Shown: piece after piece, positions 18,824-33,880 of the stretch
Layout: every line of letters starts with the position of its first letter
Numbering within the stretch: position 1 is the stretch's first letter
Origin: Myxococcota bacterium
Lineage (GTDB): Bacteria > Myxococcota_A > SURF-8
NCBI GenBank assembly: GCA_963674735.2
Contig: CAXXQS010000002.1
Span: 1,504,001 to 1,568,000, forward strand
Length of the DNA stretch: 64,000 nt
Reading direction: 5' to 3'
Made by a program: the position numbers and the translations under genes
The notes under the pieces: generated by a model
Database searches by the model: none
Told to the model about the DNA's origin: nothing
Seen by the model: the letters and a program-made list of their open reading frames with translations, nothing else

Positions 18824-18899
18824 GCCAACGTAGCTCAGCTGGTAGAGCAGCTGATTCGTAATCAGCAGGTCAGGAGTTCGAATCTCCTCGTTGGCTCCA
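18824..18899 (+). tRNA. tRNA-Thr (anticodon CGT)
   Basis: 76 nt cloverleaf: GCCAACG/CGTTGGC acceptor, GCTGA-TTCGTAA-TCAGC anticodon arm, GTTCGAATC T-loop, encoded CCA. Confidence 0.97.
18855..18899 (+). repeat. att core, left copy (within tRNA)
   Basis: TTCGTAATCAGCAGGTCAGGAGTTCGAATCTCCTCGTTGGCTCCA, identical to 32391-32435. Confidence 0.95.
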
Positions 18900-18909
18900 T
18901 AGTCATTTC

Positions 18910-18951
18910 AAAGGGTTAGACGATTTGGAGTCGTCCGACCCTTTTCTTTTT
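18910..18951 (+). terminator. Terminator downstream of tRNA, supplied by the element
   Basis: AAAGGGTTAGACGA-loop-TCGTCCGACCCTTTT followed by a T-rich run. Confidence 0.6.
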
Positions 18952-19076
18952 GGTGCGCTATGGTGCAATGAGGGTGTTTTTAGTCCTTTTTCACCGGGTC
19001 TTCCTGGGATCGATTCAGTGCCCCCCCTGAAACAGATCAGGGGGTGCTAGTTTCGATTCGGAAGGAGGATCAGGCT

Positions 19077-20234
19077 ATGCAAGACAGGAAAGAAAAGACC
19101 CAGGAAAACACCAAAAAGCGAGTCACTCGTAATCGGACATCCGCTCCCCAGAGACGCGGTGACAAGTGGCGGATCCAGTGGACCGACCACACCGGCAAAC
19201 GACGATCGAAGACCTTCGACACCTTCGATGAAGCCAATCGTGAACTTGAACGTGTCAAAGGGGCCAGACGACTCGTTCAGGATGGATCCCTTCCCGCGCC
19301 CCCTGAACCGATCACCTTCAAGGAGTTCGTCAAGACCTACTACATCCCAAACCGGACGGAACAGACACGCTGTCCCCGAAACGATCACTCCATCTTCAAG
19401 AATCATCTGTACACGGCCTTCAACGACTTCAATTTGGTCGATATCGACCTGCGGGTGATCGAATCCTTCAAGGGGAAGAAGTTGTCCGGTGGGATGCATC
19501 CGAACACACTCCGCCACATCCTGACCCTTCTGAAATCCGTTCTTCGATACGCCCATTCGATGGAATTCTTGCTAAGGGTGCCCGCGTTCAAGATGCCGAA
19601 GATCCCGGAACGGCCATACAGCTACATCCGGACCGACGACGGTATCCGGGCCTTACTGAGGGAGGCCAAGAAAGAAACCGATGGGGTCTATGAACTGTAT
19701 GCGACCGCCATCTATACGGGAATGAGGGCCGGGGAACTGCTGGGGCTGATGTGGGACGATGTCGACTTCAACACCCGACTGATCCGCGTGGCCCGATCCC
19801 ACGATCAACCGACGAAATCCGGAAAAGTTCGACACGTCCCGATCCTGGACACCCTCTGGCCCATCCTTCGTGAATGGCGGTTGAAGAACGATTCCAAGTA
19901 TGTCTTCCCGACCGAAATCGGAACCCGGCAGGCCCGAAGTCCAAGGGCGACCAAAACGACCTTCAAAGACTGCCTGGAACGCGCAGGATTGGACGATATG
20001 CGCTTCCACGACCTTCGGCATACCTTTGCATCCCATTGGGCCATGAAAGGCGGTACACGCGAAAAATTACAGGAAATCCTGGGACACTCCGATCCGACCA
20101 TGACCCAACGGTATCGACACCTCGAACCCCAAATCTTTCAGGATGACCTGGGGATCTTCGGAAAGCCTGAAGATCATTCATCGGACAATGTTGTCCAGGT
20201 TGGGGAACATCAAGACGTGGCCGCCAATATGTGA
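19077..20234 (+). CDS. int: Tyrosine recombinase / integrase
   Basis: TGMRAGEL (R), TKSGK (K), FHDLRHT (HxxR), LGHS (H), TQRY (Y); N-terminal arm-binding-like WRIQWTD; AAGGAGG SD. Confidence 0.95.
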   Translation: MQDRKEKTQENTKKRVTRNRTSAPQRRGDKWRIQWTDHTGKRRSKTFDTFDEANRELERVKGARRLVQDGSLPAPPEPITFKEFVKTYYIPNRTEQTRCPRNDHSIFKNHLYTAFNDFNLVDIDLRVIESFKGKKLSGGMHPNTLRHILTLLKSVLRYAHSMEFLLRVPAFKMPKIPERPYSYIRTDDGIRALLREAKKETDGVYELYATAIYTGMRAGELLGLMWDDVDFNTRLIRVARSHDQPTKSGKVRHVPILDTLWPILREWRLKNDSKYVFPTEIGTRQARSPRATKTTFKDCLERAGLDDMRFHDLRHTFASHWAMKGGTREKLQEILGHSDPTMTQRYRHLEPQIFQDDLGIFGKPEDHSSDNVVQVGEHQDVAANM

Positions 20235-20248
20235 TCGTTTAGGGAGTG

Positions 20249-20284
20249 GAACCGGTCCGGGTAGGATTCATCCGGACCGGTTTC
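20249..20284. terminator. Hairpin between convergent int and vsr
   Basis: AACCGGTCCGG...CCGGACCGGTT inverted repeat. Confidence 0.6.
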
Positions 20285-20696
20285 ATTTCCGATCCAGTCC
20301 CTTTTCCAGTTTCCGGATCAGTTTGTCTTCGTTCTTCAATTCGCACTGCCAAACGACCATGACCTTCCATCCCAACTTCTTCAAGTCCTTCGCGTTTCGT
20401 TTGTCGCGTTCGACATTGGCCTTGAACTTGTCCTCCCAGAATTCGACGTTCGTCGCTGGCGTGGAAGCATATCTACATCGTGGGTGGCGGTGCCAGAAAC
20501 ATCCGTGGACGAAGATCACCGTTCGATACTTCGGAAGGACGATGTCGGGTTTCCCAGGAAGGTCTTTTCGGTGAAGACGGAATCGGTATCCCAGGCGGTG
20601 AAGGATGGATCGGACTTTGACTTCGGGTTTGGTATTCTTTCCTTTGACCGCCCCCATGATGCGGGAACGATCTTCTTTGGAAAAGACATCGGGCAT
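20283..20696 (-). CDS. vsr: Very short patch repair endonuclease
   Basis: RSRIM..VKGKNTKPE, LPGKPDIV, FVHGCFWH, VWQCE. Confidence 0.95.
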   Translation of the reverse strand: MPDVFSKEDRSRIMGAVKGKNTKPEVKVRSILHRLGYRFRLHRKDLPGKPDIVLPKYRTVIFVHGCFWHRHPRCRYASTPATNVEFWEDKFKANVERDKRNAKDLKKLGWKVMVVWQCELKNEDKLIRKLEKGLDRK

Positions 20697-20704
20697 CTTT
20701 GAAG

Positions 20705-22813
20705 TCAGTTTTCTTCGGGGTCCAGTTCCTTGAATTCAACATCCGTTGGACCTACACCCATTTTTCTCGGCTCTTTCCCTCTGTGGGCTGTCCCCAGGTC
20801 TAACATTCTTCGGGTTTGGGCGACCTCGGTAATTTTCCGATGGAACCAATTCCCGTCAACATTCCCGATTAGAACGTCCCTGTAATGTTCATAATGATTG
20901 CGTACTCTTTCAAAAACATCTTTCCATAGAAGAATGTCCAGATCTTTTCGTTCCTTCCAGGTCTGAAGGTCTTCCACTTCAAGCGCGGGTTCCTGTCCAC
21001 AAATGAAGACCATATGGAAGTCACCCCTTCTGGATTTCTTCAGCCGGGATTTATATTTTTCGAGTCTATGAAGTTCATCCAATTCGGCGATATGTCCAGA
21101 CCGTTTAATCTCGATAACGACATACTTCCCATCGCCTTCCAGGGCGAGGAAATCATATCGTAATTTTTCATTCGGATCGGAGACGTCTTCTGCGTTCCAT
21201 TCTTTGAGTTGTTTTGTTAAGGATTTTTCTTCGGATAGTACCTGCCATTCAGGATTCAGAAGCCAAGGATACCATGCCAGAAGATCGTGAAGATTGTCGT
21301 CCGTCAATGAAGATGGTGTTTCGGGGGCATCATTGACCAACATGTCGTCGAACTTTTCGATGATATTCAATCGGCCTTGAACGATTTCAAGGATCGCCCG
21401 ACTTTCCAACACTTGCCAACTCCCAAGTTTTTCAAGAAATTCGGCAAGTTTCTCCGGCTCGTCTTCACTCGCGACTTCGTTGATGTCGTCAATCAGATCG
21501 TGAAACTGCCTGAACTCGAAGGCCCGAATCAACGAATCTGCCAAATCGCGGGTTTTTTCCTTTTTCCTGTCCGATTTGCTCAGGATCTTCAGGAAACTTT
21601 CCACTTGTTTATGAGAAGTGGAATCCATCCGATTCATACGCGAAATAAAGTCTTCATCGTTCAAAAGGTAGTATTCGGTGTCACGTCCAACCAAATCGGC
21701 ACACCACCGAATCGCAGCACGGCTAGTACGTTGCCCCCACACTTTGAAATCATCTAACCGATCCTCTTCCCACTTCAACGATTGACGGTCGGTGGATATC
21801 AAATCGCCATCATCGGTATCATCGGAATCGACGAAGTCCGCATGTATTTCTCCTGAAAGATACCTGGTTCCGAATTGGCCCGAAGCCGTAGCTTCTACTT
21901 CGAAAAAGAAATCCGGAGACTGAACCATCTTCCCATTCGCATATATTATGAATCCACGGTATTCTTTGTTTTTCAGTGGACTATCGGCACATCCGTAGCG
22001 GTAAAGTATTTTTTCGCCACTCGGTAATTCATGGGACAAGTATAAAAACTCTCGGCCATCGGTGACTTCCACTTTCTCTGTTACTTCATTTTCCTCGGAA
22101 GGCACTTCTTCCAGGAACGATAATTCGGGTTCCTTTACTTCATTGCCGTTGACGTAGATTTTCATTTGGCCCCGAACTCTTCGACCGAACATCCGAGCCA
22201 ATGCCACACTCAGCGTTTCTTCGTCCAACGGTGTTTTGTGCTTCAACGACTTCAATGTCACTATGGTTCCGTTCGACCCCAATCCTTCAGCATCTTTTTC
22301 AATTCCTCCGATCGGAACTTGGGTGACATCTTCCTCGCCTTCACCACCGTATAGTTTACTTTTGTCCCAGTCGAACTCGATAACCTTTCCATTCTTCCAG
22401 GTCTTAATCGCCATCGCATCGGCGATTCCGAATCCACCAAGTTTCCCTAGTCCTTTTCGACCAATAACCGGCCTTTCGGGATTACCACTGTCTTGTCCTT
22501 CTGCGCGTCTGTTTCTGCCGACAACCAGATATTGGTCCTGGACAGCACCCTCGTTCATGCCGCAACCATCATCCTTGATGATGATTTCCGACTTTTCCAC
22601 ATTCAGTATTCTCTTTGATGGATCATTCGGATCATCCATGAATGAGTTTTTCAATTCGATCTCGACAATGTTTGCACCGGCATCCCATGAGTTCGATACG
22701 AGTTCGGCAATCGCCATATCGCGACGCTTGTACAACTGCACCCCTAGATGATGGAGGGTCTTCCCAAGGACTCTTAAATGGAATTCGACTTTTCGTTCGG
22801 AACGATCAGACAT
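20705..22813 (-). CDS. GHKL (MORC/MutL-like) ATPase fused to C-terminal PD-(D/E)XK nuclease
   Basis: ELVSNSWDA, DDGCGM, GRKGLGKLGGFG, GTIVTL; C-terminal YDFLAL...VVIEIKR. Confidence 0.82.
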   Translation of the reverse strand: MSDRSERKVEFHLRVLGKTLHHLGVQLYKRRDMAIAELVSNSWDAGANIVEIELKNSFMDDPNDPSKRILNVEKSEIIIKDDGCGMNEGAVQDQYLVVGRNRRAEGQDSGNPERPVIGRKGLGKLGGFGIADAMAIKTWKNGKVIEFDWDKSKLYGGEGEEDVTQVPIGGIEKDAEGLGSNGTIVTLKSLKHKTPLDEETLSVALARMFGRRVRGQMKIYVNGNEVKEPELSFLEEVPSEENEVTEKVEVTDGREFLYLSHELPSGEKILYRYGCADSPLKNKEYRGFIIYANGKMVQSPDFFFEVEATASGQFGTRYLSGEIHADFVDSDDTDDGDLISTDRQSLKWEEDRLDDFKVWGQRTSRAAIRWCADLVGRDTEYYLLNDEDFISRMNRMDSTSHKQVESFLKILSKSDRKKEKTRDLADSLIRAFEFRQFHDLIDDINEVASEDEPEKLAEFLEKLGSWQVLESRAILEIVQGRLNIIEKFDDMLVNDAPETPSSLTDDNLHDLLAWYPWLLNPEWQVLSEEKSLTKQLKEWNAEDVSDPNEKLRYDFLALEGDGKYVVIEIKRSGHIAELDELHRLEKYKSRLKKSRRGDFHMVFICGQEPALEVEDLQTWKERKDLDILLWKDVFERVRNHYEHYRDVLIGNVDGNWFHRKITEVAQTRRMLDLGTAHRGKEPRKMGVGPTDVEFKELDPEEN

Positions 22814-22823
22814 TCATTTGTCC

Positions 22824-23861
22824 TTAAAATGTAAGATGTTTTCTAATCTGGTTGGCCTGTCGTCGAATGAACTCCGGTGGAAGAGCGTTGCCGATCATTT
22901 GGCCGGCTCCGGTCTTTCCCTTGGCCAACGAAAAATAGTAGTTCCTGGGAAACGTCTGTAAGAGAGCCGCTTCCCGTAGGGAGATCGCACGATCTTCTTC
23001 TGGATGAAGGAAACGCCCCTTTGAGGGATTGAAGCACCCACTGGTTATCGTCGACGACACACGGTCCCACCACAGTCGCCCATAGACATCTTTGAACCCA
23101 GGGCATTTCTTGTGGCATTCCAGTTGCCATTCTTCGGGAAGATCCATTCGACTACCACCATCCTTCGGAACCAATCGGATCAGTTGACGGGTCTTCTCCG
23201 TCCTTTTTTCGCCGATGTCATGAAGGGGATCTTCACTTTCGCCGACAGGGGGAAGTCCCTCTATCGCTTGGCGGACCGTGAAGGTTTTAGAGGATTTTCT
23301 GGCGAATCGAATCTTTCCTGTTTTCGATGCCAGAAGGATCAATCGCTTCCTTCTTTGTGGGACGCCGAAATTGGAGGCGTCGAACACCTTCCTTCTGACC
23401 GAATAACCGATGCCTTCAAGGTCGGCCATGAATTTGTCAAGACGTTCATCCGTTGCGAGTCCGGGGACGTTCTCCATCATGACTGCTTCGGGCTGCATCG
23501 TTTCGATGAACCTGAAGAAATCGAACACCAGATCGTTCCTGGGATCGTCCACCGATCCGGGTCTGTTCAGGGTTCTCATGGATGAAAACCCCTGACAAGG
23601 TGGACACCCCGCGAGTAACGACAATTCACCCTGTTTCAGACCCAAATCGTTCATGACCGCTTCGGGATCAAGTTTGGTGATATCTTCTTTCCAAACCTTC
23701 ACTTCAGGATGATTCACTCTATAAGTGTCGACTGCGAGGGGTTCGATTTCGATCGCCCCTTTTACATCGAATCCGGCCTGTTTCAGGCCAAGGGTCAACC
23801 CGCCCGCCCCGCAGAACAGGTCGACCGCACACAACTTCGTTTTTTTCTTTCTTCTACCCAT
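22824..23861 (-). CDS. dcm: DNA (cytosine-5)-methyltransferase
   Basis: DLFCGAGG, GCPPCQGFS, MENVPG, VPQRRKR, REAALLQTFP, IGNALPP. Confidence 0.95.
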   Translation of the reverse strand: MGRRKKKTKLCAVDLFCGAGGLTLGLKQAGFDVKGAIEIEPLAVDTYRVNHPEVKVWKEDITKLDPEAVMNDLGLKQGELSLLAGCPPCQGFSSMRTLNRPGSVDDPRNDLVFDFFRFIETMQPEAVMMENVPGLATDERLDKFMADLEGIGYSVRRKVFDASNFGVPQRRKRLILLASKTGKIRFARKSSKTFTVRQAIEGLPPVGESEDPLHDIGEKRTEKTRQLIRLVPKDGGSRMDLPEEWQLECHKKCPGFKDVYGRLWWDRVSSTITSGCFNPSKGRFLHPEEDRAISLREAALLQTFPRNYYFSLAKGKTGAGQMIGNALPPEFIRRQANQIRKHLTF

Positions 23862-24022
23862 TCGCGTCTCGGAATCATAGATAACAGTGCGATAATTCTA
23901 CCAATTTGACGCTTTCAACGCAAGAGAAAGCGTTTTCCCACGTCGGGATTCATCCCTTATACCGGAATCGGTGCCGATTCTCAAAGAAATCACCCAAATC
24001 CCCCGCACAGGGTGAAAGGAAA

Positions 24023-24424
24023 CTAGGGTTTCTTCTTTTTGAATTTGGCGGAACCATGACCGATGTGATCAGTCAATTTTTCATCGACATCACGAAGGAC
24101 TTCTCCTGTCTCCTGATCGACAACCAATTCACGATATCGGTTACCATCCTTGTCGGTAATCCTGGTCTTATCCACCCACTTGTCCTTGTCGATCCTCTTT
24201 TCTTCCCCTATGATTTGTTCATGCCGAATCTTCTTTTTCGAGGGCTTGGAATCGTCTTTCAGTCTTGTGCGAGTCCATTCACGGGGTTTGGGAATCGTTT
24301 CCTCAAAGAATGTCTGAATTTTCAGTTTAGAACTGCCACAATATGGACATTGTTCTGGCGGATTACTTAACGGACCATCAAGTTCCTTTTCACATTCCCT
24401 GCAAAACATTTTGAATTCACTCAT
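24023..24424 (-). CDS. Zn-ribbon hypothetical protein
   Basis: CREC...CPYCG; C-terminal LTDHIGHGSAK; start overlaps the upstream gene stop. Confidence 0.7.
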   Translation of the reverse strand: MSEFKMFCRECEKELDGPLSNPPEQCPYCGSSKLKIQTFFEETIPKPREWTRTRLKDDSKPSKKKIRHEQIIGEEKRIDKDKWVDKTRITDKDGNRYRELVVDQETGEVLRDVDEKLTDHIGHGSAKFKKKKP

Positions 24425-25499
24425 AATATCCTCCGAGCTTCTTTATCGTCGAATCGTATCGCCGCTTGATCCCGACCGTCGGGTCAAGATCCAGGGCAGA
24501 CTTCCACAAGCCGACCGCCGTTTCCAGGTCGCCTTCGGCGTGGGCGATCTCCCCCTTGAACCGAAGGAAACGGGCCTTCCAGTTCGGCTCGAACGTTTCC
24601 ACATCCCCTTCCACCGAAGCCAAACGTTCTTTCGCTTCGTCGATCTTCGGTGGCTTCTGTTTCAGGGCATCCCATGCCCCATCGATGAATTTGACGTACG
24701 GGGGAATATGAAGGACATGTTCGTTCCAGGCGTCTTCGAATCCCGGTGGGAGTTCCCCTTTGGGACCGAACGGGAATAAAAGTCGTTCTCCATCGTCCTT
24801 CCGAATCACGGCGCATATCCGGTCTTCGTCGAAATCGATCCTGTCCCAGAAGTCCGCCTTCCAAATCTGTTTGCCGGTACTCGCTTCCAGATAGAAAGTC
24901 TTCCCCGAATGCGGTTCATGGTCGCTGTTGGCCGTACACACGAACACCCTGGACGAATCCGGCGAAAACCCAGACGTGTAGATATTGGCCTTGTAGTGCT
25001 TCGCCCACAGTCGATTCCCTTCCTTGTCGAAGGCCAACAGCGCCCCGGACAGGTTTTCATCTTTCCAGTCTTCCACGATCACCATACCGTCGTCGGTGAC
25101 ATGGGCATTGTTCGCCCGATTGATGGTCTTGACGAACAGCGGTCGATTCGATCCCGATTCGAAAAGGGCGCACTTGCCCTTGATACGTCGGTCGTTTTCA
25201 TAGTGATGATCCGACGATCCGACGATGAAGCGACCGTTCGGTGAAACGTGATCCTTCATCACGAACCCGTCGCGGGAAATGGACAGAAAGTCTTCACCAA
25301 AATCGGAACCGGGATCGGATGTCGGAACCCTTCGATCGGAAGTCGAAGGTGACGGTATTCCCCGCGCCTGGGACTGTGACTCCATCGATCGCTTCAACAT
25401 ACCGTAAATGGCGATCGGGAAAAATACGATGAACAGAACGACCAACAACAGGTCGTTGTCGTACCATTTTCTAGTTTCTGGTTGAATCGTCATCTTCAT
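24417..25499 (-). CDS. Membrane-anchored beta-propeller + TPR protein
   Basis: N-terminal TM (LLLVVLFIVFFPIAIYGML); SPNGRF, DKEGNRLW, STGKQIW repeats; C-terminal TPR (GEIAHAEGD...ALDLDP). Confidence 0.65.
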   Translation of the reverse strand: MKMTIQPETRKWYDNDLLLVVLFIVFFPIAIYGMLKRSMESQSQARGIPSPSTSDRRVPTSDPGSDFGEDFLSISRDGFVMKDHVSPNGRFIVGSSDHHYENDRRIKGKCALFESGSNRPLFVKTINRANNAHVTDDGMVIVEDWKDENLSGALLAFDKEGNRLWAKHYKANIYTSGFSPDSSRVFVCTANSDHEPHSGKTFYLEASTGKQIWKADFWDRIDFDEDRICAVIRKDDGERLLFPFGPKGELPPGFEDAWNEHVLHIPPYVKFIDGAWDALKQKPPKIDEAKERLASVEGDVETFEPNWKARFLRFKGEIAHAEGDLETAVGLWKSALDLDPTVGIKRRYDSTIKKLGGYYE

Positions 25500-25550
25500 C
25501 CAATCGCTGGCAAAGAATTCAAGATTTCTTCTTCTCCTATCTCAAACCGT

Positions 25551-26213
25551 CTATCTTCTTCTCCACGGAGATTTGTATCTTCCATTATTGGTCTGGTGGT
25601 ATTCTGCAAGATGGTCGGCAAGGTAATTGTCAACTATTACTATGATTTTCTCGATATCATCGCGATAGGAAATCAGATCGGGAATCTTGACATAGTTTGC
25701 TCCAGAACCTTGGTGGGCAATATCCCCCCTGACACCAACAAATTCATCCAGATCGGGATAAGTCCCATCCCACGAATCAGAAATACTTTCAATACCCAAA
25801 AATCTCTTGAATAGCTTATCAAGGTGTTCTTTTTTTGGCGTATTCAACTTGTCTACTTGATATTGGGCGACTTCTTGTAGAAGATTAACCCACCCATCCC
25901 CCGCAAGCTCAAAAGGTTTCAGTTCATGTTTACTTTCTTTAACGTAGGTGGACAAGTATCTCTTTACAGGAACAGGAATGTTGTCGGGGCTGGAAGTGGA
26001 ATCGATCATTTTCTTAAGACTTTCGAGCAAAACACTTTCCATGTACTGTTCCCAGGCAGCACAAAGCATAACGACCCCGCTACGGGTGATATGTCCCAGT
26101 CCTCGTCTTCCTCTTCCACTATCGCTTAGGAAGGAATGGGTATTGATTAGCTTGTCAACATCAACTACTAGGGTCTTCTCAAAAGTCGAGAGAGCTTCCG
26201 ATGGCATCTCCAC
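25551..26213 (-). CDS. HEPN domain protein (RiboL-PSP-HEPN-like)
   Basis: RSGVVMLCAAWEQYME N-terminal motif; RGDIAH (RxxxxH) RNase motif. Confidence 0.8.
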   Translation of the reverse strand: MEMPSEALSTFEKTLVVDVDKLINTHSFLSDSGRGRRGLGHITRSGVVMLCAAWEQYMESVLLESLKKMIDSTSSPDNIPVPVKRYLSTYVKESKHELKPFELAGDGWVNLLQEVAQYQVDKLNTPKKEHLDKLFKRFLGIESISDSWDGTYPDLDEFVGVRGDIAHQGSGANYVKIPDLISYRDDIEKIIVIVDNYLADHLAEYHQTNNGRYKSPWRRR

Positions 26214-26356
26214 CCCCTGGTGATGAATGGAACGATTCCTCGCTCAGAGTCTAAATTCATTTTTGCGCCAAGTGTAAACGGTCGATGACCGGAGCATACC
26301 GAATTCAAGTGTGTCCGTCAAAACAATCGCATTCACAAAAAATAGAGTATGAATAA

Positions 26357-28816
26357 TCACCGCACACACCTGATCCCGGCGACTTCGGTCTTTGTCTTGT
26401 CCACGGTCTGTCCCGTCTCGAAGTCGACCGCCTTCGCGTATCGTGGTTCGTAGGGGTCGGATGTCGACGACCAGAACACTTCCGACGGCATGGACGGGAA
26501 GGTGGACGCCGGATCGTATTCGTTGAACTTCACGATGGACCATAGTTCCTTGACGTTCGGAAGTCGCCAGTCGGTGTAACCGCCGATCGTCGCCGACTCG
26601 CAATAGGACAGGGTGTCTTCCCACGAATAGTCGGTCGGATCGATCGATGGCCATCGCTGCCAGTGAAGACCAGTTCCCAAGTCGAAGATCACGGAACTTT
26701 GATAGACATACCGGGACTCGAAACCGGCTTCCGACCACGACGGATGGTTTCGGACACATCGGACATTGAACCCTGTGTCACGATCGGACCACCCCAACGC
26801 GCCCGATCCTGTGTTCACGAACCACCCATAGCCTTCGTACCAGGACGAATCGACCACGGTCGACGTCCAGAAAACACCACCCGAATCCGGGAACGCCACC
26901 GGGTCCAAACTCTTTGATCCGCCGAATTCCAGAAGGGTGATCCATTCGTGGGCGGTCGGAAGTTTCCAGTCCGAATATCCGGCATAAGTCAGACCGCTAC
27001 AGAACGAAACGGCGTCCGACCTGGACATGGTCGACGTCGCCGAAATCTGCGTCCAGACGAATCCGGTCACGCTTTCGACCACCACCGGGTCGCCCATCAC
27101 GGTTTCCACATAGATCGCCCGTGGAATGTCCTGATACTGCCCGTCCTGGCCGCAATATTGGGTAATGCTACAGGCCGACCCACCGGCCTCGCCCGGACAG
27201 GGAATCCGATACCATTCGCCATAACAGGCGGTCTGACCGGTCGGCGTCACCGGCCACAGACCTTCGGACCGTTCCGTCGCCTCGAATCCGCCACAGTTCG
27301 GATAGACACCCGGTGCGCCTTCCTCGCACTGTCCACAGTCCGATCCCGTGAAGTTGTCCAGACAGTCGCATCCCCCGGTGTCCGGAAGACAGACCCCGTG
27401 CCCCTCGCAACCGACCGCCCAAGTTCGCTCACAGGAACCGTCCAGACACACGTTCGGACCGGTACACAGACCGTCGTTTCCGCACGGTGTGTCGTCCGGG
27501 GAATCGACGACCGAACATCCCCCTTCGCCGTCGCACTCGCTCGATTCCTGGCATTCCGCAGGGGCGCAGGAATAGGGGATCGCCCCCTGACACACACCTT
27601 CCGAATCGCAATAGTCCGCCTTCGTGCAGGGATTTCCGTCGTCGCACTCCGAATACGTTTCCTTCGGAACCCATTCGTTCGAAGCCGAATCGCACTTTTG
27701 ACACGAATCATCGGGGTTCCATTGTCCATCGGCGAAACAGGTGTCGCCGATCAAACACATCGTTTCGATCCGATCGTGAAGACAAATTCCCGATCCGTCG
27801 CAGTGGTCGTCGGTACAGTCCTTTCCGTCCGATTCGCATGAAGTCGCGTTGTCCGGGAAGGCGACCACACAGGTATTCGATCCGTCACAACTCCGATCGG
27901 CTCCGCATATCCCCGGACCATCTTCACAAACGATCGGTGTTCCGCCACAGGTTCCACCATCGCAATGATCGCCATAAGTACAGGGATCGGAGTCGTTGCA
28001 GGTTTCCGATTCGGGCTTCGAGGCCCATCCATTCGTTTCCGAATCGCACCATCGGCATTCGTTGTCCGGATGGTTTTCATGATGGACATAACAGGTTCCG
28101 CCGATCAGGCAGAATCCATCCTGGATCGGATGGACGCAATCGTGGTCCGCATCGCACACATCATCGGTACAAGAGAAATCGTCCGTTTCTTGAAGACAGT
28201 CCGATCCGACCGACAACCATTCTCCTTCCGAACAACATGGTCCACCCTCGCATTCGGGTGGATCGGTTTCTTCTGGATCTTGGTCTTCGTCGACGGATTC
28301 TTCCGACTCCGTGTCCGGTTCCGGGTCTGGATCGACGTCTGGATCGGCTTCGATCTCGGAATCTTCTTCCCGCTCCGGGTCCGGATCGCTATCGACCCGA
28401 TCCGTGTCCCCTTCATCCGACTCCGAATCCAGATCACCATCGGGGGAAGAATCTTCATCGTTCTCAAAACCCCCGTTTTCGGAATCCCCTTCAAGATCGC
28501 CGTCGGTATCGTTGACATCGTCAAGATCCGACTCCGACAATTCCACTTCATCGAATTCGCCTTCTGACGATCGATCGTCGTCAGGGGTATCCAGATCCCC
28601 GTCCAAACCCGGATCGTCGCTCACACAGGCATTCTGACGGCATTTCAGGCCATCGACGCACGTTCCGTCGTCGTAACAAGGACACCCTTCCGTTCCGGCT
28701 GGACACGACTCGTCAAGATCGCCGTCTGAAGACGGACTACCGACCTGCGAAGACCCGGAACATGAATACATTCCGAGAAGAATCAATAGGGATAGGATCG
28801 AAAGGTATTTCGTCAT
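26357..28816 (-). CDS. Cys-rich lipoprotein with acidic DGD linker and two DUF1566 (Lcl C-terminal) domains
   Basis: Lipobox MYSC; CDDGNPCT-type repeats; TGQTACY..GQDGQY; WKLPT/WRLPN, FWTST/FWSST and VRCVR/IRCVR duplicated. Confidence 0.85.
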   Translation of the reverse strand: MTKYLSILSLLILLGMYSCSGSSQVGSPSSDGDLDESCPAGTEGCPCYDDGTCVDGLKCRQNACVSDDPGLDGDLDTPDDDRSSEGEFDEVELSESDLDDVNDTDGDLEGDSENGGFENDEDSSPDGDLDSESDEGDTDRVDSDPDPEREEDSEIEADPDVDPDPEPDTESEESVDEDQDPEETDPPECEGGPCCSEGEWLSVGSDCLQETDDFSCTDDVCDADHDCVHPIQDGFCLIGGTCYVHHENHPDNECRWCDSETNGWASKPESETCNDSDPCTYGDHCDGGTCGGTPIVCEDGPGICGADRSCDGSNTCVVAFPDNATSCESDGKDCTDDHCDGSGICLHDRIETMCLIGDTCFADGQWNPDDSCQKCDSASNEWVPKETYSECDDGNPCTKADYCDSEGVCQGAIPYSCAPAECQESSECDGEGGCSVVDSPDDTPCGNDGLCTGPNVCLDGSCERTWAVGCEGHGVCLPDTGGCDCLDNFTGSDCGQCEEGAPGVYPNCGGFEATERSEGLWPVTPTGQTACYGEWYRIPCPGEAGGSACSITQYCGQDGQYQDIPRAIYVETVMGDPVVVESVTGFVWTQISATSTMSRSDAVSFCSGLTYAGYSDWKLPTAHEWITLLEFGGSKSLDPVAFPDSGGVFWTSTVVDSSWYEGYGWFVNTGSGALGWSDRDTGFNVRCVRNHPSWSEAGFESRYVYQSSVIFDLGTGLHWQRWPSIDPTDYSWEDTLSYCESATIGGYTDWRLPNVKELWSIVKFNEYDPASTFPSMPSEVFWSSTSDPYEPRYAKAVDFETGQTVDKTKTEVAGIRCVR

Positions 28817-28842
28817 GGGCGCACCTGCCAGAATTCAGAGTT

Positions 28843-29073
28843 AAAAAAAGGGCGACGTGCAGCCAGGCGAGCCCACCACACGCGCCCCCCTGAAGAGCGC
28901 GCGCGGGTGCCACCCACGCACGGTACAGGTGCGCTGTGACTCGCCTGTTTGTCTGTCCGATCGGATTCGATCCTTCCCGATCACGGTTGGCTAGACCGCC
29001 GGTCCCTTCAGGGACAGGGAAGAAACGGATTCGACGAACATTTGGAGTATATCAGGGAAGGTATGGAAGGCAA
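28843..29073 (-). promoter_or_regulatory. Promoter plus structured 5' leader with terminator/antiterminator upstream of the DUF1566 gene
   Basis: TTGCCT-16 bp-TATACT with TG extension (29073-29046); hairpin 28887-28850 followed by U7; competing strand CAGGCGAGUCAC at 28947-28936. Confidence 0.6.
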
Positions 29074-29117
29074 ACGGAAATCTGGAACAATACAAACGGT
29101 CCCTATCGTTTGAGATT

Positions 29118-29405
29118 TTAGATGGGATTTTCGTCTTGGTGAAGGTGATAAGGAGTCAACACCAAAGAGTACTTGTACCGAGTTGCACCGGCTCTCTCGG
29201 CGGATGAAACAATGGCCTTTTTGCAGTATTCGAGCACATCATCGTATTCCTGGCCAAGACCGGGACTATAGGCGTATGCCATTGATTTGTCAGCACAACG
29301 GTTCAGACCCGAATGAGCCATTATGTTGTCAAATTCTTTTTCAATATAGTTCCCATCAAGGTCAATCACTATCAGAACGGTTAGATCATCTTGTGACGGC
29401 ATCAT
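29118..29405 (-). CDS. Hypothetical protein
   Basis: AAGGAG SD; 95-aa ORF co-oriented with its neighbours. Confidence 0.55.
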   Translation of the reverse strand: MMPSQDDLTVLIVIDLDGNYIEKEFDNIMAHSGLNRCADKSMAYAYSPGLGQEYDDVLEYCKKAIVSSAERAGATRYKYSLVLTPYHLHQDENPI

Positions 29406-29457
29406 TCTACTCCTTGAATTTCTAATTCTATGTAGTCTGAATTATCTCATACCATGT

Positions 29458-29712
29458 TCAATACATCAACTCGAAACCACCTCCTTCTTCTTCCTGCCAT
29501 TGTTCGGCGACCGACTTCGCCTCTTTCAAAGTCGGGATCACTGCGGACTTATGGATCTTCGTATCTCCATCGTCGGCCATGAACATCTTCATGATTCCAT
29601 ATCCGCGACCGGATTCGTACCGACCCTTTTTCGTTCCCAGAACGATGCTCAGAGTTCCCCCCGAAACATCTTTCCGAAAGATCTTCAAGTCCGGGTCTGG
29701 CATGGAAGTCAT
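29458..29712 (-). CDS. Hypothetical protein
   Basis: AAAGGA SD; 84-aa ORF co-oriented with its neighbours. Confidence 0.55.
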   Translation of the reverse strand: MTSMPDPDLKIFRKDVSGGTLSIVLGTKKGRYESGRGYGIMKMFMADDGDTKIHKSAVIPTLKEAKSVAEQWQEEEGGGFELMY

Positions 29713-29770
29713 CGATAGATCCTTTCCGAAAACAGGTCATGAAATCATGGTTCGATCGTATCCGCAGAAA

Positions 29771-30000
29771 CCGAGTTCGGCAACGCGAAAGGCGAAAGCG
29801 AGCTTGGAATTGACGCTACACACGTTCACCACAAGTGGTATATGTAGAGTCCGATCGACCTTACACGTTCCCCACACGTGCGGTATACCCTCTGATCGAT
29901 TTACGTTGCACGAACGTTGCACGAACGGTACACCCCTTTTCCGGTTTTTCCTTGCACAAGCATTGCACATGTTCACCACACCCCATCCTTGACTATATCC
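29771..30000. repeat. Degenerate direct repeats and hairpin next to rep (candidate origin)
   Basis: ACACGTTC..CCACA..GGTATA..GATCGA units at ~29819 and ~29863; tandem CGTTGCACGAA x2; GTTCACCACA x2; hairpin CCGAGTTCG/CGAGCTTGG. Confidence 0.5.
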
Positions 30001-30039
30001 CAGCAAATATCTGTAATCATTGGTATATTCACGATATTG

Positions 30040-30741
30040 TCATTCCTGGCCGATCAGTCGTCCCGTTCCCCAGGCGATCAGAAGTTTTCGGTGTTTGATC
30101 GCCATGATTATTTCATTCAATTTCCGAAGGGAATCGGGGGTCGGCTCCGTGGGTGTCGGACACCATGTTTCTTTCTTCGTGATGTAATCCGCCAGTTGTT
30201 TTAATCTTCGAAGGTCGACCTGGGGATCGGTGTGGTATTCGAATCGACCTGTCCAGTTCGTCCCCGAAATCCGTGTATACTTCCCCCATGACTCTTTCAA
30301 GAAATCCGTATCGATTCCCTGATCGTCCAGGATCAGATGTGCATGTACGAGCCAAAATCCCGTCGTTTCATCATACTTCACTTCCAGGGCCGATACTCCA
30401 CCTGGGACGTGGGACTTGAACTCGACACGATGACGGATCTTCAACAATGAATCTCGGAACAGGGTGATCGCCCTCGCCAAGTCATACATCTTCGAAACGG
30501 AAACGAGGAAGGCGACCGAGTTGTCGAACTGTCTTATCGCCATCTGAACGTGGGCCGAGTTCCTTTCCGCGATGATTCCAGCACAGGTTGGACACATTCT
30601 TTGTTTACACAGCGTCGTGTGAGGATATCCGAGATAAAAGTTTTTCGTTCCACAGTTCAGGATTCTTCCGGCCAATTCCCTATAACCGAGTTCTTCCAGT
30701 TCTTTCGATCTTGCCTCTTGCAGGTCTGGATTGAATATCAT
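30040..30741 (-). CDS. rep: Rolling-circle replication initiator (Rep_1-like HUH endonuclease)
   Basis: CKQRMCPTC Zn motif, GGVSALEV, HUH VHAHLIL, catalytic YITK. Confidence 0.75.
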   Translation of the reverse strand: MIFNPDLQEARSKELEELGYRELAGRILNCGTKNFYLGYPHTTLCKQRMCPTCAGIIAERNSAHVQMAIRQFDNSVAFLVSVSKMYDLARAITLFRDSLLKIRHRVEFKSHVPGGVSALEVKYDETTGFWLVHAHLILDDQGIDTDFLKESWGKYTRISGTNWTGRFEYHTDPQVDLRRLKQLADYITKKETWCPTPTEPTPDSLRKLNEIIMAIKHRKLLIAWGTGRLIGQE

Positions 30742-30797
30742 GTCAGGAACTTTCTTTTTATGGTGGTCAATGATCTAAGGGTGAACGAGATCCGATC

Positions 30798-31001
30798 CTA
30801 CTCGGAGTCGGAGTCTTCCGCGTTCTGTGGCATGACATGTCGTTGTTTGATCCAGTCTTCGAGTTCTTCCAGATCGAAACGAACGGTTCGACTGTTCAAT
30901 CGGTAGTGGGGAATCTGTTTCTTACAGACCATAGAATACAGGGTAGGCTTTTTGAATCCGAAGATTTGGGTCACTTCGTCATAGGTCGCATATTTCTTCA
31001 T
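30798..31001 (-). CDS. AlpA/excisionase-like HTH protein
   Basis: EVTQIFGFKKPTLYSMV...IPHYRL...VRFDLEELEDWI; AAAGGAG SD. Confidence 0.85.
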   Translation of the reverse strand: MKKYATYDEVTQIFGFKKPTLYSMVCKKQIPHYRLNSRTVRFDLEELEDWIKQRHVMPQNAEDSDSE

Positions 31002-31097
31002 GGGATCTCCTTTCCACGTGATGGCTGGACAAGGTCCAGAAAACTAATCGTGTTAGGAGTAGATCATGAAGGAGAGGATTACAGGAGGGTCACTGAA

Positions 31098-32330
31098 TCA
31101 CCATTTACTTCTTTTATTGCGTTTCTTACGACATTTCTCTGAACATATTGTGGACGGACTGGCACTGTCGGGATCATTAGATCTCTGAAAAACGGGGGTT
31201 CCACATACCTGGCATAGAGTGGGAATTTGAGGATCGGTGAATCGAGGAACATAATTGAACTTTCCACCGAATTCGTTCGGGTCATCTTTTGAAGGCCAAC
31301 GAGTGACAGGATCTTGTTTATCCAATAAATCAGCCAGGGTCAATTTGCCTTCCTTGTAAAGTCTCCGAATTCTTTCTTCTTCAGGATACTCAAACCCAGG
31401 ATCCGATTCATCCTTCATAAGCCAGTTCCAGAGACGAGCTATATTCTCGATGAAGTTATGGAACAATCTGTATCTTTGGGCCTCCCATCGGCCTGTGATT
31501 TTACCAAATAGGATCAGTTCGATCCTGGTTGGATCTCCAGAACGGACCACCATATCAGAAAGGATCAAGCTCCTTTCCTCTTCTTCGGTCAACCCTCTTA
31601 CTTGGGCATATAGATGGAAACAGTCGAGAACCAGTGGGATCAATCGAGATGCCACACCTGCGGCTATGTCCATGTCCTTCGATCCATCGACTATGGGTGA
31701 TCTGCGATCACGAAGAGACAATTCCCGGATCTGTGATCGCAGCGAAGCCCTAAGATAGTGATCTCGGATAAACTCCTTTTTCGGTATGTATGGCTCATAC
31801 CCTGTGTGTAAATTGTCTTTGAAGTCGATTTCGTGATCGGACACCACTGGTTCGAAAGGATGTTCACCTTCTTCTAGTTTCGACCTCGTTCCATCGATTG
31901 ACTTTTTCAATCCACAGTACGCCAAGAACTCTCTTACGATTACACTTCCGGCATCGACGATGGATCCTCGTTCGTCTTTCATCGATATTTTCGGGTTGGA
32001 TGGAATCCTCGGATCTTTCCGTTTAGGACCGGACCGAACGTAATCACCCAAGTATTCGCAATCCGACTCCCACACTTCGTCTTCGGACATATCATCGGTC
32101 AGACGGGAAAGACTTTCCCTTTTTCGTTTCGTGTATTCCGCCCTCAAACGAGGATCGGTCAAATCTTCATCTTCCGGTCCCCAATCGAGGTCTTCGGAAG
32201 GTTCGTCACATAACTCGGAAGGGTTTTCCTTATTAGGTTTCTTTGGATTCATCGCCATCTTTTCTTCGGTGCATTCGGGTGCAACAACATGGGCAAGTCT
32301 ATCGAAATGAGACAAACTTGACAAGAACAA
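31098..32330 (-). CDS. Hypothetical protein with C-terminal CxxC...CSxxC zinc finger (start probably ~32258)
   Basis: Long ORF; acidic N-terminus; CQVCG...CSEKCRKKR. Confidence 0.65.
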   Translation of the reverse strand: MFLSSLSHFDRLAHVVAPECTEEKMAMNPKKPNKENPSELCDEPSEDLDWGPEDEDLTDPRLRAEYTKRKRESLSRLTDDMSEDEVWESDCEYLGDYVRSGPKRKDPRIPSNPKISMKDERGSIVDAGSVIVREFLAYCGLKKSIDGTRSKLEEGEHPFEPVVSDHEIDFKDNLHTGYEPYIPKKEFIRDHYLRASLRSQIRELSLRDRRSPIVDGSKDMDIAAGVASRLIPLVLDCFHLYAQVRGLTEEEERSLILSDMVVRSGDPTRIELILFGKITGRWEAQRYRLFHNFIENIARLWNWLMKDESDPGFEYPEEERIRRLYKEGKLTLADLLDKQDPVTRWPSKDDPNEFGGKFNYVPRFTDPQIPTLCQVCGTPVFQRSNDPDSASPSTICSEKCRKKRNKRSKW

Positions 32331-32390
32331 CGAAATGGATTAATCAAAGAAGAACAAGGAACTTTGAAATAATCAAGATTCCAGGGAGAC

Positions 32391-32435
32391 TTCGTAATCA
32401 GCAGGTCAGGAGTTCGAATCTCCTCGTTGGCTCCA
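32391..32435 (+). repeat. att core, right copy (tRNA-Thr 3' fragment)
   Basis: Identical to 18855-18899; lacks the tRNA 5' half. Confidence 0.95.
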
Positions 32436-32443
32436 GTAATTAC

Positions 32444-32477
32444 AGCCACTTAGAAATATTCTAGGTGGCTTTTTTTG
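32444..32477 (+). terminator. Terminator after attR
   Basis: AGCCACTTAGA-AATAT-TCTAGGTGGCT followed by a T-run. Confidence 0.75.
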
Positions 32478-32554
32478 TGCCTCGTTGACAAATATTGACA
32501 AAGTTGCAGGGGGATTCTTTTAACAACGATCTGCGTAAGAGGCATCATGGATCA

Positions 32555-33187
32555 CTACTTTGAGAGGACTTTTGAATTCTCAACATTCGAAGATCGGGAT
32601 TTGAATAATCTTTTAGAAATCTTATAGACCAAGATTGAAATACCTGCCGCAATTCCAAAAGACAATGAAAGCATCAAGAGGTCTGAACCAAACCTAAGCC
32701 TAAAAACCTTATCAACCAAAATCACTATCAATATAGAAGCTGGAATATAAGAAACAAGACCTGCGATAAAATAAGATGATCCAGATTTGCGGGCTATGAT
32801 GGTAGCCAACCATATGCCGAGAGTAAAAAGGCATACGCCAATGACACCCCACATGATATAGGATACGACTGTTACTTTATTTGTAAAGAATACAATAAAA
32901 GATATGTTTATACCAATGATTATTACAGCAACTATACTTCCAATACTCCATTTGTTACGAACCGTAATGATAATCAAAGCTAAGCCAATAGGTGGCATGA
33001 CCAACATCAATACAAAAGGAAGGTCGTGGAAAGCTAGTAGCGTAACAATAGTGCCAATCAAGACTACGGAAAATACAAAGCCTACCATTCTCTTTGAAAG
33101 TTTCACATAGGGATCGGAGTCAAAACCAAGCTCGTTTTCCTTATCACTGTGGTTTGCATCTATTTTTTCTGTCATCGCCCCCCCCAC
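32555..33187 (-). CDS. Multi-pass membrane hypothetical protein
   Basis: About six hydrophobic segments; AT-rich. Confidence 0.6.
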   Translation of the reverse strand: MGGAMTEKIDANHSDKENELGFDSDPYVKLSKRMVGFVFSVVLIGTIVTLLAFHDLPFVLMLVMPPIGLALIIITVRNKWSIGSIVAVIIIGINISFIVFFTNKVTVVSYIMWGVIGVCLFTLGIWLATIIARKSGSSYFIAGLVSYIPASILIVILVDKVFRLRFGSDLLMLSLSFGIAAGISILVYKISKRLFKSRSSNVENSKVLSK

Positions 33188-33880
33188 TTAGTCTCTACGA
33201 ACGCACGGAGAGCAGCCATTGTGGTTGCTACCCCACTTAGCTTCGTTCTTTCGCTCTGCTTCATAAAACGCTTCGTGCATATCACTAGCCCGAATTTCAT
33301 ATGTCATATTAAAAAGTAAGGCAGCCGGCCAAATACCACGGAGGTGCTCACAATTGCAATGATAAGTTCGAAGTGCGTTCATGGCACGTCTCGTCTCTTC
33401 TTTAGCTGCCATCTCTTCCCTGATTCGTATAATTTCCTTTTTCAGTTCTATTTCCCTTTGTTCCGCTTTTTGTGCGGCTTGGAGTTGTCTTTCAGAATTT
33501 TTGTGAGATTCATGTATCATCAAACCGGAACCAATAACCAGAACGCATAGAATTGCTGCTGTAGCCTTGTATATTGGGTTGATCATGAACAAACCGGTTA
33601 CGGGCATCGCGAAACCGAATGTGGCATAGGTTACCCAACGAGTAAATAAGGCCGATTCAGTGATCTTTGGTTGAACTTTAAGAGTCCAGACTCTTCCTAG
33701 TAAAACCAGTATTCCGAAAACAATCGCAATGCAAATAGCACCGAATATTAGAATAAGCTCGACCGTATGATCTCTAGTAAATACAGCTAGAATTATAGAT
33801 GCAAAGCAAATCAGGCAGGTCACCCCAATCAACATGGGGGCAAAAGCAAAACCGAATTTCCTTGATCTTTCAGTGTCCAT
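33188..33880 (-). CDS. Membrane protein with coiled coil and Cys-containing C-terminus
   Basis: Four TMs, coiled coil, CNC...CSPC. Confidence 0.6.
   Translation of the reverse strand: MDTERSRKFGFAFAPMLIGVTCLICFASIILAVFTRDHTVELILIFGAICIAIVFGILVLLGRVWTLKVQPKITESALFTRWVTYATFGFAMPVTGLFMINPIYKATAAILCVLVIGSGLMIHESHKNSERQLQAAQKAEQREIELKKEIIRIREEMAAKEETRRAMNALRTYHCNCEHLRGIWPAALLFNMTYEIRASDMHEAFYEAERKNEAKWGSNHNGCSPCVRRD

Follow-up and report, generated by a model that had tools for sequence, protein, structure and literature searches.

Within a 64,000-nt stretch of the genome of a Myxococcota bacterium (GTDB lineage Bacteria; Myxococcota_A; SURF-8; assembly GCA_963674735.2, contig CAXXQS010000002.1, positions 1,504,001 to 1,568,000 of the forward strand, hereafter "the window"), we identified an mRNA 5′ leader, preceding a lipoprotein gene, that probably acts as a riboswitch-like terminator/antiterminator (transcription-attenuation) switch, a reading to which we assign a probability of roughly 0.6. 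Comparative sequence analysis indicates that this leader belongs to an undescribed family of RNAs, ~200 nt in length, found in a few uncultured bacterial lineages. The attenuation reading is based on two balanced and, on paper, mutually exclusive folds, each held by compensatory changes across the family. Such a switch had been proposed in an original prediction made from the window alone, and the comparative data now support it.

A leader RNA upstream of a lipoprotein gene

The leader is housed in a 301-nt gap on the minus strand, between a 95-aa open reading frame (ORF; 29118-29405) and an 819-aa lipoprotein gene. Its features, in window coordinates, are as follows.

29046..29073, minus strand: sigma-70-type promoter, with a −35 box TTGCCT at 29073-29068, a 16-nt spacer and an extended −10 box TG-n-TATACT at 29054-29046
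28841..29045, minus strand: whole RNA, comprising leader, terminator and U-tract (covariance model R2, 121.9 bits, E 6.9e-34)
28954..29041, minus strand: 5′ domain, three-way junction of helices P1-P3 (shared architecture in single-sequence folds)
29041-29017 with 28978-28954, minus strand: P1 arm
29015-29012 with 29005-29002, minus strand: P2 hairpin (GUCCC-UGAA-GGGAC, about 29015-29002)
28999-28996 with 28986-28983, minus strand: P3 hairpin (about 28999-28983; family register GCGG-N9-CCGU, 4 bp)
28988..28991, minus strand: kissing-loop strand 1, GCCA, in the P3 loop (read from the sequence)
28948..28954, minus strand: linker AGACAAA, conserved and single-stranded, joining the two domains (consensus of 30 intact copies)
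28864..28947, minus strand: 3′ domain, four-way junction of helices P4-P7 (pair counts)
28947-28939 with 28872-28864, minus strand: P4, in which CAGGCGAGU is complementary to GCUCGCCUG inside the loop of the GC-rich hairpin
28934-28931 with 28922-28920, minus strand: P5
28918-28915 with 28907-28904, minus strand: P6
28909..28912, minus strand: kissing-loop strand 2, UGGC, in the P6 loop (read from the sequence)
28902-28896 with 28888-28882, minus strand: P7
28843..28888, minus strand: predicted intrinsic terminator T, 28888-28875 with 28863-28849, 14 bp, with a bulged U at 28855
26357..28816, minus strand: downstream lipoprotein gene, 819 aa, with its ATG at 28816, 26 nt past the U-tract
28984..28841, minus strand: 47-codon GTG ORF ending at the U-run (ORF list)
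29093..29112, minus strand: terminator-like hairpin closing the upstream 95-aa ORF and separating that gene from the RNA promoter (consensus match only)

The extended −10 promoter of the original prediction (TTGCCT-16-TATACT) was recovered at 29073-29046, with 9 of 12 consensus matches, TG at 29054-29053 and TATACT at 29051-29046, so that transcription is predicted to start near 29040. This match alone is not significant, as a scan of 7 kb returned 14 promoter-like sites compared to 7.8 ± 2.5 in shuffled sequences. Across the family, 27 of 28 copies have an identically spaced −10 box ahead of the RNA, and TGnTAnnnT occurs in 16 of 28. The 229-nt leader also folds more stably than expected from its composition, with a minimum free energy (MFE) of −104.5 kcal/mol against −87.8 ± 5.05 kcal/mol in shuffled sequences (z = −3.30; 0 of 200 shuffles equal). 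A terminator scan restricted to loops of up to 8 nt did not report the GC-rich hairpin; its loop is longer, with 11 nt that contain the P4 3′ strand, and is followed by U7 at 28849-28843. The 819-aa product itself carries an acidic linker, Cys-rich modules and two Lcl_C (DUF1566) domains (Pfam Lcl_C, E 2.2e-45).

Distribution of the family across genomes and metagenomes

A BLAST search of the leader against 60 relatives yielded three real matches (69-72% identity), each upstream of a lipoprotein gene, and a covariance model (R1) was built from these and the window sequence. R1 detected 16 copies at full length (E ≤ 1.7e-15), distributed over 7 of the 10 genomes that make up the window's order and equally its whole class; among them are the window copy (189.1 bits) and another from the same genome (L022). 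Neither R1 nor the later model R2 found any copy in 141 other genomes sampled from the window's phylum. Exact-motif scans picked out three genomes outside the class, and through these a second lineage with 9 copies in 6 of 17 genomes (G151-G167); this lineage (loci L259-L261 and L283-L286) is classed as a separate phylum. A metagenome scan with the P3 motif returned 60 stretches containing 10 true copies, 9 of them distinct, and a strict 3′-domain motif scan of metagenomes gave no matches. The resulting alignment (A6), from which the duplicates L193, L257 and L258 (of L166, L174 and L207, respectively) were dropped, holds 32 distinct full-length sequences and provided the 32-sequence model R2. 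This model had a single significant match in the window, and no match in a specificity control of 80 unrelated GC-rich loci (591 kb) sharing a loose 3′ motif. The 119 rows obtained from a loose motif scan of genome contigs were set aside as chance matches, as none of the 80 tested fits the family model.

Genomes with the RNA carry one to four copies. Among intact members, the window copy diverges most, scoring 121.9 bits with R2 compared to at least 137.9 bits for the other intact copies scored. The patchy spread of the family may reflect horizontal transfer. Two sequences, L024 (G009:C53:181528-181739) and L183:617-803, retain P1 to P6 and have the P7/terminator part, i.e., the 3′ third, replaced by unrelated sequence; the break in L024 coincides exactly with the end of a convergent 500-aa ORF. 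Both sequences probably reflect decay or rearrangement, and were kept in pair counts but excluded from "intact" tallies (30 intact copies). Three metagenomic copies (L174, L178, and L203) share a conserved stretch ~40-60 nt upstream of the RNA, beyond the promoter, with no tRNA gene there.

Comparison to Rfam 15 (4227 models, including cobalamin, lysine, T-box, c-di-GMP, 6S, and C4 antisense RNA) gave no match to the leader at E ≤ 10 across window positions 27500-30500, and no match at E ≤ 1 in 18 homologous loci. This agrees with the original view that the leader represents no known riboswitch class, and lends no support to the accompanying suggestion of a c4/P4 CI-like antisense RNA. Literature searches on such leaders also turned up no description of the motif, although the supplementary motif lists of large RNA-discovery papers could contain it.

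Two junction domains connected by a kissing loop

Family members share a common layout in which P1 closes a three-way junction with P2 and P3, a linker leads into a four-way junction formed by P4 to P7, and the terminator T and its U-tract come last. The 5′ architecture (P1 and the apical P2 and P3) recurs in 13 copies folded one at a time. The two small 5′ hairpins originally noted at this locus are thus present, but they are not separate elements, and correspond instead to P2 and P3 of the junction closed by P1. The sequence of P1 is nearly free to vary and yet always pairs: since this ~20-bp helix lies outside the covariance models, the alignment not being in register there, it was judged by duplex energies, which are −20.2 ± 4.6 kcal/mol for cognate and −10.6 ± 4.2 kcal/mol for non-cognate strands.

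For the remaining helices, pair counts in A6 revealed extensive compensatory change. Across P2-P7 and the kissing loop, 95.7% of cells are paired, compared to 82.7% in shuffled alignments and 30-50% when partners are slid, and 23 of 38 pairs show both-side changes, a number reached in 0 of 500 shuffles, although such shuffle counts are not probabilities because the copies are related. Because R1, used to build the alignment, already contained P4 and P7 in its structure, the figures for these two helices lean toward the model; the local pairing of P3, the kissing loop, and the terminator were all absent from the R1 structure. By helix, the counts are as follows.

P4: both-side changes in 9/9 pairs, 96.9% of cells paired
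Kissing loop (columns 59-64:153-158): both-side changes in 4/6 pairs
P2: both-side changes in 3/4 pairs
P3: both-side changes in 3/4 pairs, 100% paired
P6: both-side changes in 3/4 pairs
P5: both-side changes in 1/4 pairs
P7: both-side changes in 0/7 pairs, sequence conserved, 94.9% paired

An unbiased helix scan ranked the upper terminator stem first by covariation, P4 second, and the loop-loop helix between P3 and P6 third. In the window copy and in L019, the kissing register is one column off the family helix, so that the table undercounts the window copy. Conserved G-U pairs, for instance U:G in 29 of 32 copies at columns 170:200 and 27 of 32 at 212:232, fit an RNA of the minus strand only, which identifies this as the functional strand. 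Taken together, these data respond to the covariation check proposed with the original prediction, as both conservation and covariation extend to the 31 other copies.

Two further candidate helices were rejected. A helix between the P3 GGCGG and a 3′ GUCGCC, seen in the four-sequence consensus, gave way with more sequences to local pairing of GGCGG, the long-range version varying by wobble only. The energy model favours a longer P7 that would consume the P6 3′ strand, but this version is kept in 20-28 of 30 copies per pair, less than P6 or T, and misses changes that T follows.

Paralogues within one genome differ in kissing-loop sequence, each being matched within its own RNA. The four copies of G004 (L012, L020, L026, and L029) include the kissing loops GACUA/UAGUC and GGUUA/UAACC, and in the window's genome (G000) the window copy has GCCA/UGGC and L022 has GACUA/UAGUC. 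Distinct kissing loops might keep paralogues from cross-pairing.

A covarying predicted terminator overlapping the putative antiterminator helices

The GC-rich hairpin and U7 originally noted ahead of the start codon correspond to T, a 14-bp stem with one bulge, in which 93.6% of cells are paired and 8 of 14 pairs show both-side changes across the family. Its covariation score of 0.379 exceeds those of shuffled (0.203; 0 of 500 reach it) and slid (≤0.145) alignments, and the alignment was not fitted to it, since T was not part of the alignment model. Every one of the 30 intact copies has a U-rich tract after T, with 5 or more T in 9 columns, and 27 of them reach at least 6.

The first seven nucleotides of T are the P7 3′ strand, while the P4 3′ strand falls in the T loop, 0-1 nt before the T 3′ strand. 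In H-type pseudoknots, a connector of 0-1 nt is too short to cross a helix of 9 bp, and by this geometry P4 and T should be unable to coexist in complete form. The two states also appear evenly matched: when each fold is forced, energies of about −80 kcal/mol lie on average 1.9 kcal/mol apart, with T favoured in 9 of 24 copies. If the RNA is cut before the T 3′ strand, the MFE structure includes P4 in all 30 copies and P7 in 18; for the full-length RNA, it includes P4 in 21 of the 30 and T in 6. The exclusion between the GC-rich hairpin and an upstream strand, first noted in the window copy alone, is hence matched by compensatory change in both partners and by balanced energies.

These properties suggest the following mechanism. 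Transcription would begin at the RNA's own extended −10 promoter, and the nascent RNA would fold into the two junction domains, P1-P3 and P4-P7, docked through kissing of the P3 and P6 loops. The last 15 nt could then pair with the P7 3′ strand and the adjoining 8 nt to form the 14-bp T just before the U-tract, a step that would require opening of P7 and also melting of P4, since the P4 3′ strand makes up the T loop and abuts the T 3′ strand. An effector stabilising the two-domain fold would block T and let the polymerase read into the lipoprotein gene; without it, T would form and an RNA of ~200 nt would be released. We thus infer an "ON" switch operating by direct competition, in which termination itself, its alternation with read-through, the direction of switching, and the existence of an effector are all deduced from the two folds.

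Association with genes for surface lipoproteins

Intact copies with 500 nt or more of sequence downstream number 28, and in every one the next ORF is co-directional and starts within 325 nt (L174 and L203, whose contigs end too soon, were left out of downstream counts). The start codon lies 11-51 nt past the model end in at least 15 of these 28 copies, which leaves no room for a second promoter. Eighteen of the 28 downstream products are predicted lipoproteins, 14 recognised by a lipobox regular expression and 4 by eye (L011, L012, window copy, and L285, with unusual −2/−3 residues), and most of these carry long acidic linkers. A further 5 of the 28 have an N-terminal signal or membrane segment, assigned by eye. 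Pfam matches among downstream products are as follows.

Laminin_G_3: 6 copies
Lcl_C: 3 copies
PQQ-like beta-propeller: 2 copies
FGE-sulfatase: 2 copies
FG-GAP: 2 copies
VWA: 1 copy
Bor: 1 copy
HSDR_N/RAMA: 1 copy
TPR: 1 copy
No Pfam match: 9 copies

The RNA therefore precedes the DUF1566 lipoprotein gene, as originally described, but is not peculiar to it, being found ahead of several lipoprotein domain families. Because the association spans at least seven unrelated domain families, and occurs in two lineages, co-duplication of leader and gene alone is insufficient to explain the link to surface proteins. Most downstream units consist of a single gene followed by a convergent gene. The units of L021 and of L268 and L274 include proteins with an N-terminal zinc ribbon instead of a lipobox, once with FGE-sulfatase after it; these zinc-ribbon proteins represent a different anchoring of a similar outer domain.

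The window copy within an integrative island

The window copy resides in a low-GC integrative island (provisionally window 18824-33200) that begins at a tRNA-Thr gene (18824-18899) and carries the leader, together with its Lcl_C (DUF1566) lipoprotein gene, as cargo. Other island genes, all annotated with Pfam, include:

19044-20234: integrase
20705-22813: HATPase_c_3 protein
22824-23861: C5 DNA methylase
25551-26213: HEPN RiboL-PSP gene
30040-30741: Rep_1-like gene
30798-31001: AlpA/HTH_17 gene

A strong terminator-like hairpin (12 pairs, T7) is also found at window 32444-32470 on the plus strand, at the edge of a 410-aa gene region.

Lcl_C and FGE-sulfatase domains are typical targets of diversity-generating retroelements, and their presence downstream of the RNA prompted consideration of such a link. 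This was rejected: there is no template repeat, and the last 301 nt of the lipoprotein gene match only themselves genome-wide. Two RVT_1 reverse-transcriptase genes (frames of 966 and 798 aa, at G000:C1:524366-524965 and G000:C1:600352-600729) are present on another contig, unlinked to this locus.

Alternative explanations

Several observations weigh against an attenuation switch. P7, which makes up half of the antiterminator, shows no both-side change (0/7 pairs), its support being sequence conservation and 94.9% pairing. Thermodynamic predictions leave out the kissing loop and folding kinetics. Riboswitch families usually vary their expression platforms, and here every intact copy has the same platform, with a terminator sequence unusually conserved for that role, while the strong U-tracts (at least 6 T in 9 in 27 of 30 copies) would also suit a free-standing small RNA gene. 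On the gene side, the next gene is 101-323 nt away in six copies (L011, L019, L213, L023, L166, and L021), which leaves room for a promoter of its own, 5 of the 28 downstream products are not obviously exported, including those of the HSDR_N/RAMA and TPR genes, and no metabolic or transport gene hinting at a ligand is found among the downstream genes. Finally, copies are interrelated, and the gene-plus-leader pairs L012/L020, L016/L029, and L011/L019 are recent duplicates, so that counts exaggerate the number of independent events.

Part of this evidence would fit a free-standing, possibly bistable small RNA gene, whose ~200-nt product would act in trans while lipoprotein genes co-travel with it in mobile or duplicated cassettes. 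The RNA has its own terminator, with a conserved stem sequence and a strong U-tract, as well as a promoter kept in nearly all copies (27/28 for the −10 box). It is present in one to four copies per genome, and some copies stand at a distance from the next gene or beside the unrelated HSDR_N/RAMA and TPR genes, the window copy itself being inside an integrative island. Yet action in trans has no obvious need for a terminator that reuses the P7 strand and encloses the P4 strand, with both folds covarying and near-isoenergetic. Nor would it account for the co-directional gene in 28 of 28 copies, at least 15 of which end 11-51 nt before a start codon, or for an association that extends across at least seven unrelated domain families. 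We therefore consider a trans-acting small RNA unlikely, albeit as the alternative that deserves the most attention.

Processive antitermination in cis, by analogy with the RNAs of phage HK022 put and the Bacillus EAR element, would instead have the fold modify the polymerase to ignore its own and later terminators, without alternating between two states. A large conserved fold, extending from promoter to terminator and heading long genes for exported proteins, could be read in this way. However, this would leave the overlap between terminator, P7, and P4 and their energy balance unexplained, there is no Rfam match to such families, and the downstream units, mostly single genes followed by a convergent gene, have little need for processivity. 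We regard this reading, a functional analogy, as very improbable.

At the DNA level, the long imperfect palindrome of variable sequence formed by P1, and the integrase, Rep_1-like, and AlpA-like genes of the window island, could suggest a site of recombination or attachment, or else a palindrome belonging to an island cassette. This is hard to reconcile with the many conserved G-U pairs, which are C-A mismatches on the other strand, and with a promoter, terminator, and U-tract that share a single strand, invariably the one on which the next gene is read. Adjoining tRNA genes, suspected by eye, were found at none of 26 loci, and most copies have no integrase in their 6.7-kb stretches (based on ORF lists, with Pfam applied to some downstream genes only), so that a DNA element seems barely credible. 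Leader-peptide (ribosome-mediated) attenuation through the 47-codon GTG ORF can be dismissed for practical purposes: the ORF is present in the window and ends at the U-run as originally noted, but an ORF of at least 20 codons ending there is found in only 1 of 28 copies, ORFs from the same GTG end at other columns or run on in other copies, and the region evolves by paired compensatory changes rather than codon-wise.

Comparison to known regulatory RNAs

Among known systems, the proposed attenuation switch recalls the pbuE/ydhL adenine riboswitch, a transcriptional "ON" switch based on direct competition between aptamer and terminator. In both cases a leader lies behind its own promoter, the 3′ strands of the fold provide the 5′ half and the loop of the terminator, and energies are balanced; because of this strand sharing, stabilisation of the fold would be expected to cause read-through. 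By contrast, the RNA described here is ~3 times larger, with two junction domains, a kissing loop, and no Rfam match, precedes surface lipoprotein genes rather than metabolic or transport genes, and conserves the sequence of its terminator stem.

The cobalamin (L5-L13) and lysine (L2-L3) riboswitches provide examples of large multi-junction aptamers with loop-loop contacts, and resemble this RNA in their size of ~200 nt, a core of multi-helix junctions, and a covarying kissing loop tying distant hairpins. The Rfam models of these riboswitches nevertheless do not match the leader (E ≤ 10) or the 18 homologous loci (E ≤ 1), the gene context differs, and the kissing loop here joins two junction domains rather than an aptamer and an expression platform. 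Attenuators bound by protein or tRNA, such as T-box, PyrR, TRAP, and BglG/SacY RAT leaders, follow the same terminator/antiterminator logic, and an effector other than a small molecule would suit the lack of metabolic genes downstream. However, there is no match to Rfam T-box or leader models and no conserved partner gene beside the copies, and protein-binding sites are typically much simpler than this fold.

For the effector of the proposed switch, a small molecule or ion is somewhat more likely than a protein or other factor, neither being probable by itself. More specifically, and tentatively, the family could represent a new riboswitch class, in which a two-domain kissing-loop aptamer of ~190 nt would turn on a repertoire of surface lipoproteins of lectin and adhesin type in response to an intracellular signal, the module being carried between lineages on mobile islands. 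This signal could be a cyclic-nucleotide second messenger or a divalent cation such as Ca2+, the latter a candidate since many of the domains under control, among LamG, C-type-lectin-like, FG-GAP, and VWA domains and poly-Asp linkers, are commonly metal-dependent.

Significance

If the attenuation reading is correct, this family would add a structurally elaborate orphan class to cis-regulatory RNAs, and would connect RNA sensing with the display of surface lipoproteins (whose domains are lectin-, adhesin-, and integrin-like) instead of with metabolism or transport. The presence of both alternative folds in the covariation record is uncommon, and would make the mechanism directly testable with compensatory mutants. 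Since the family is limited to poorly known uncultured lineages, with at least one copy on an integrative island, its distribution would also hint at a portable regulatory module.

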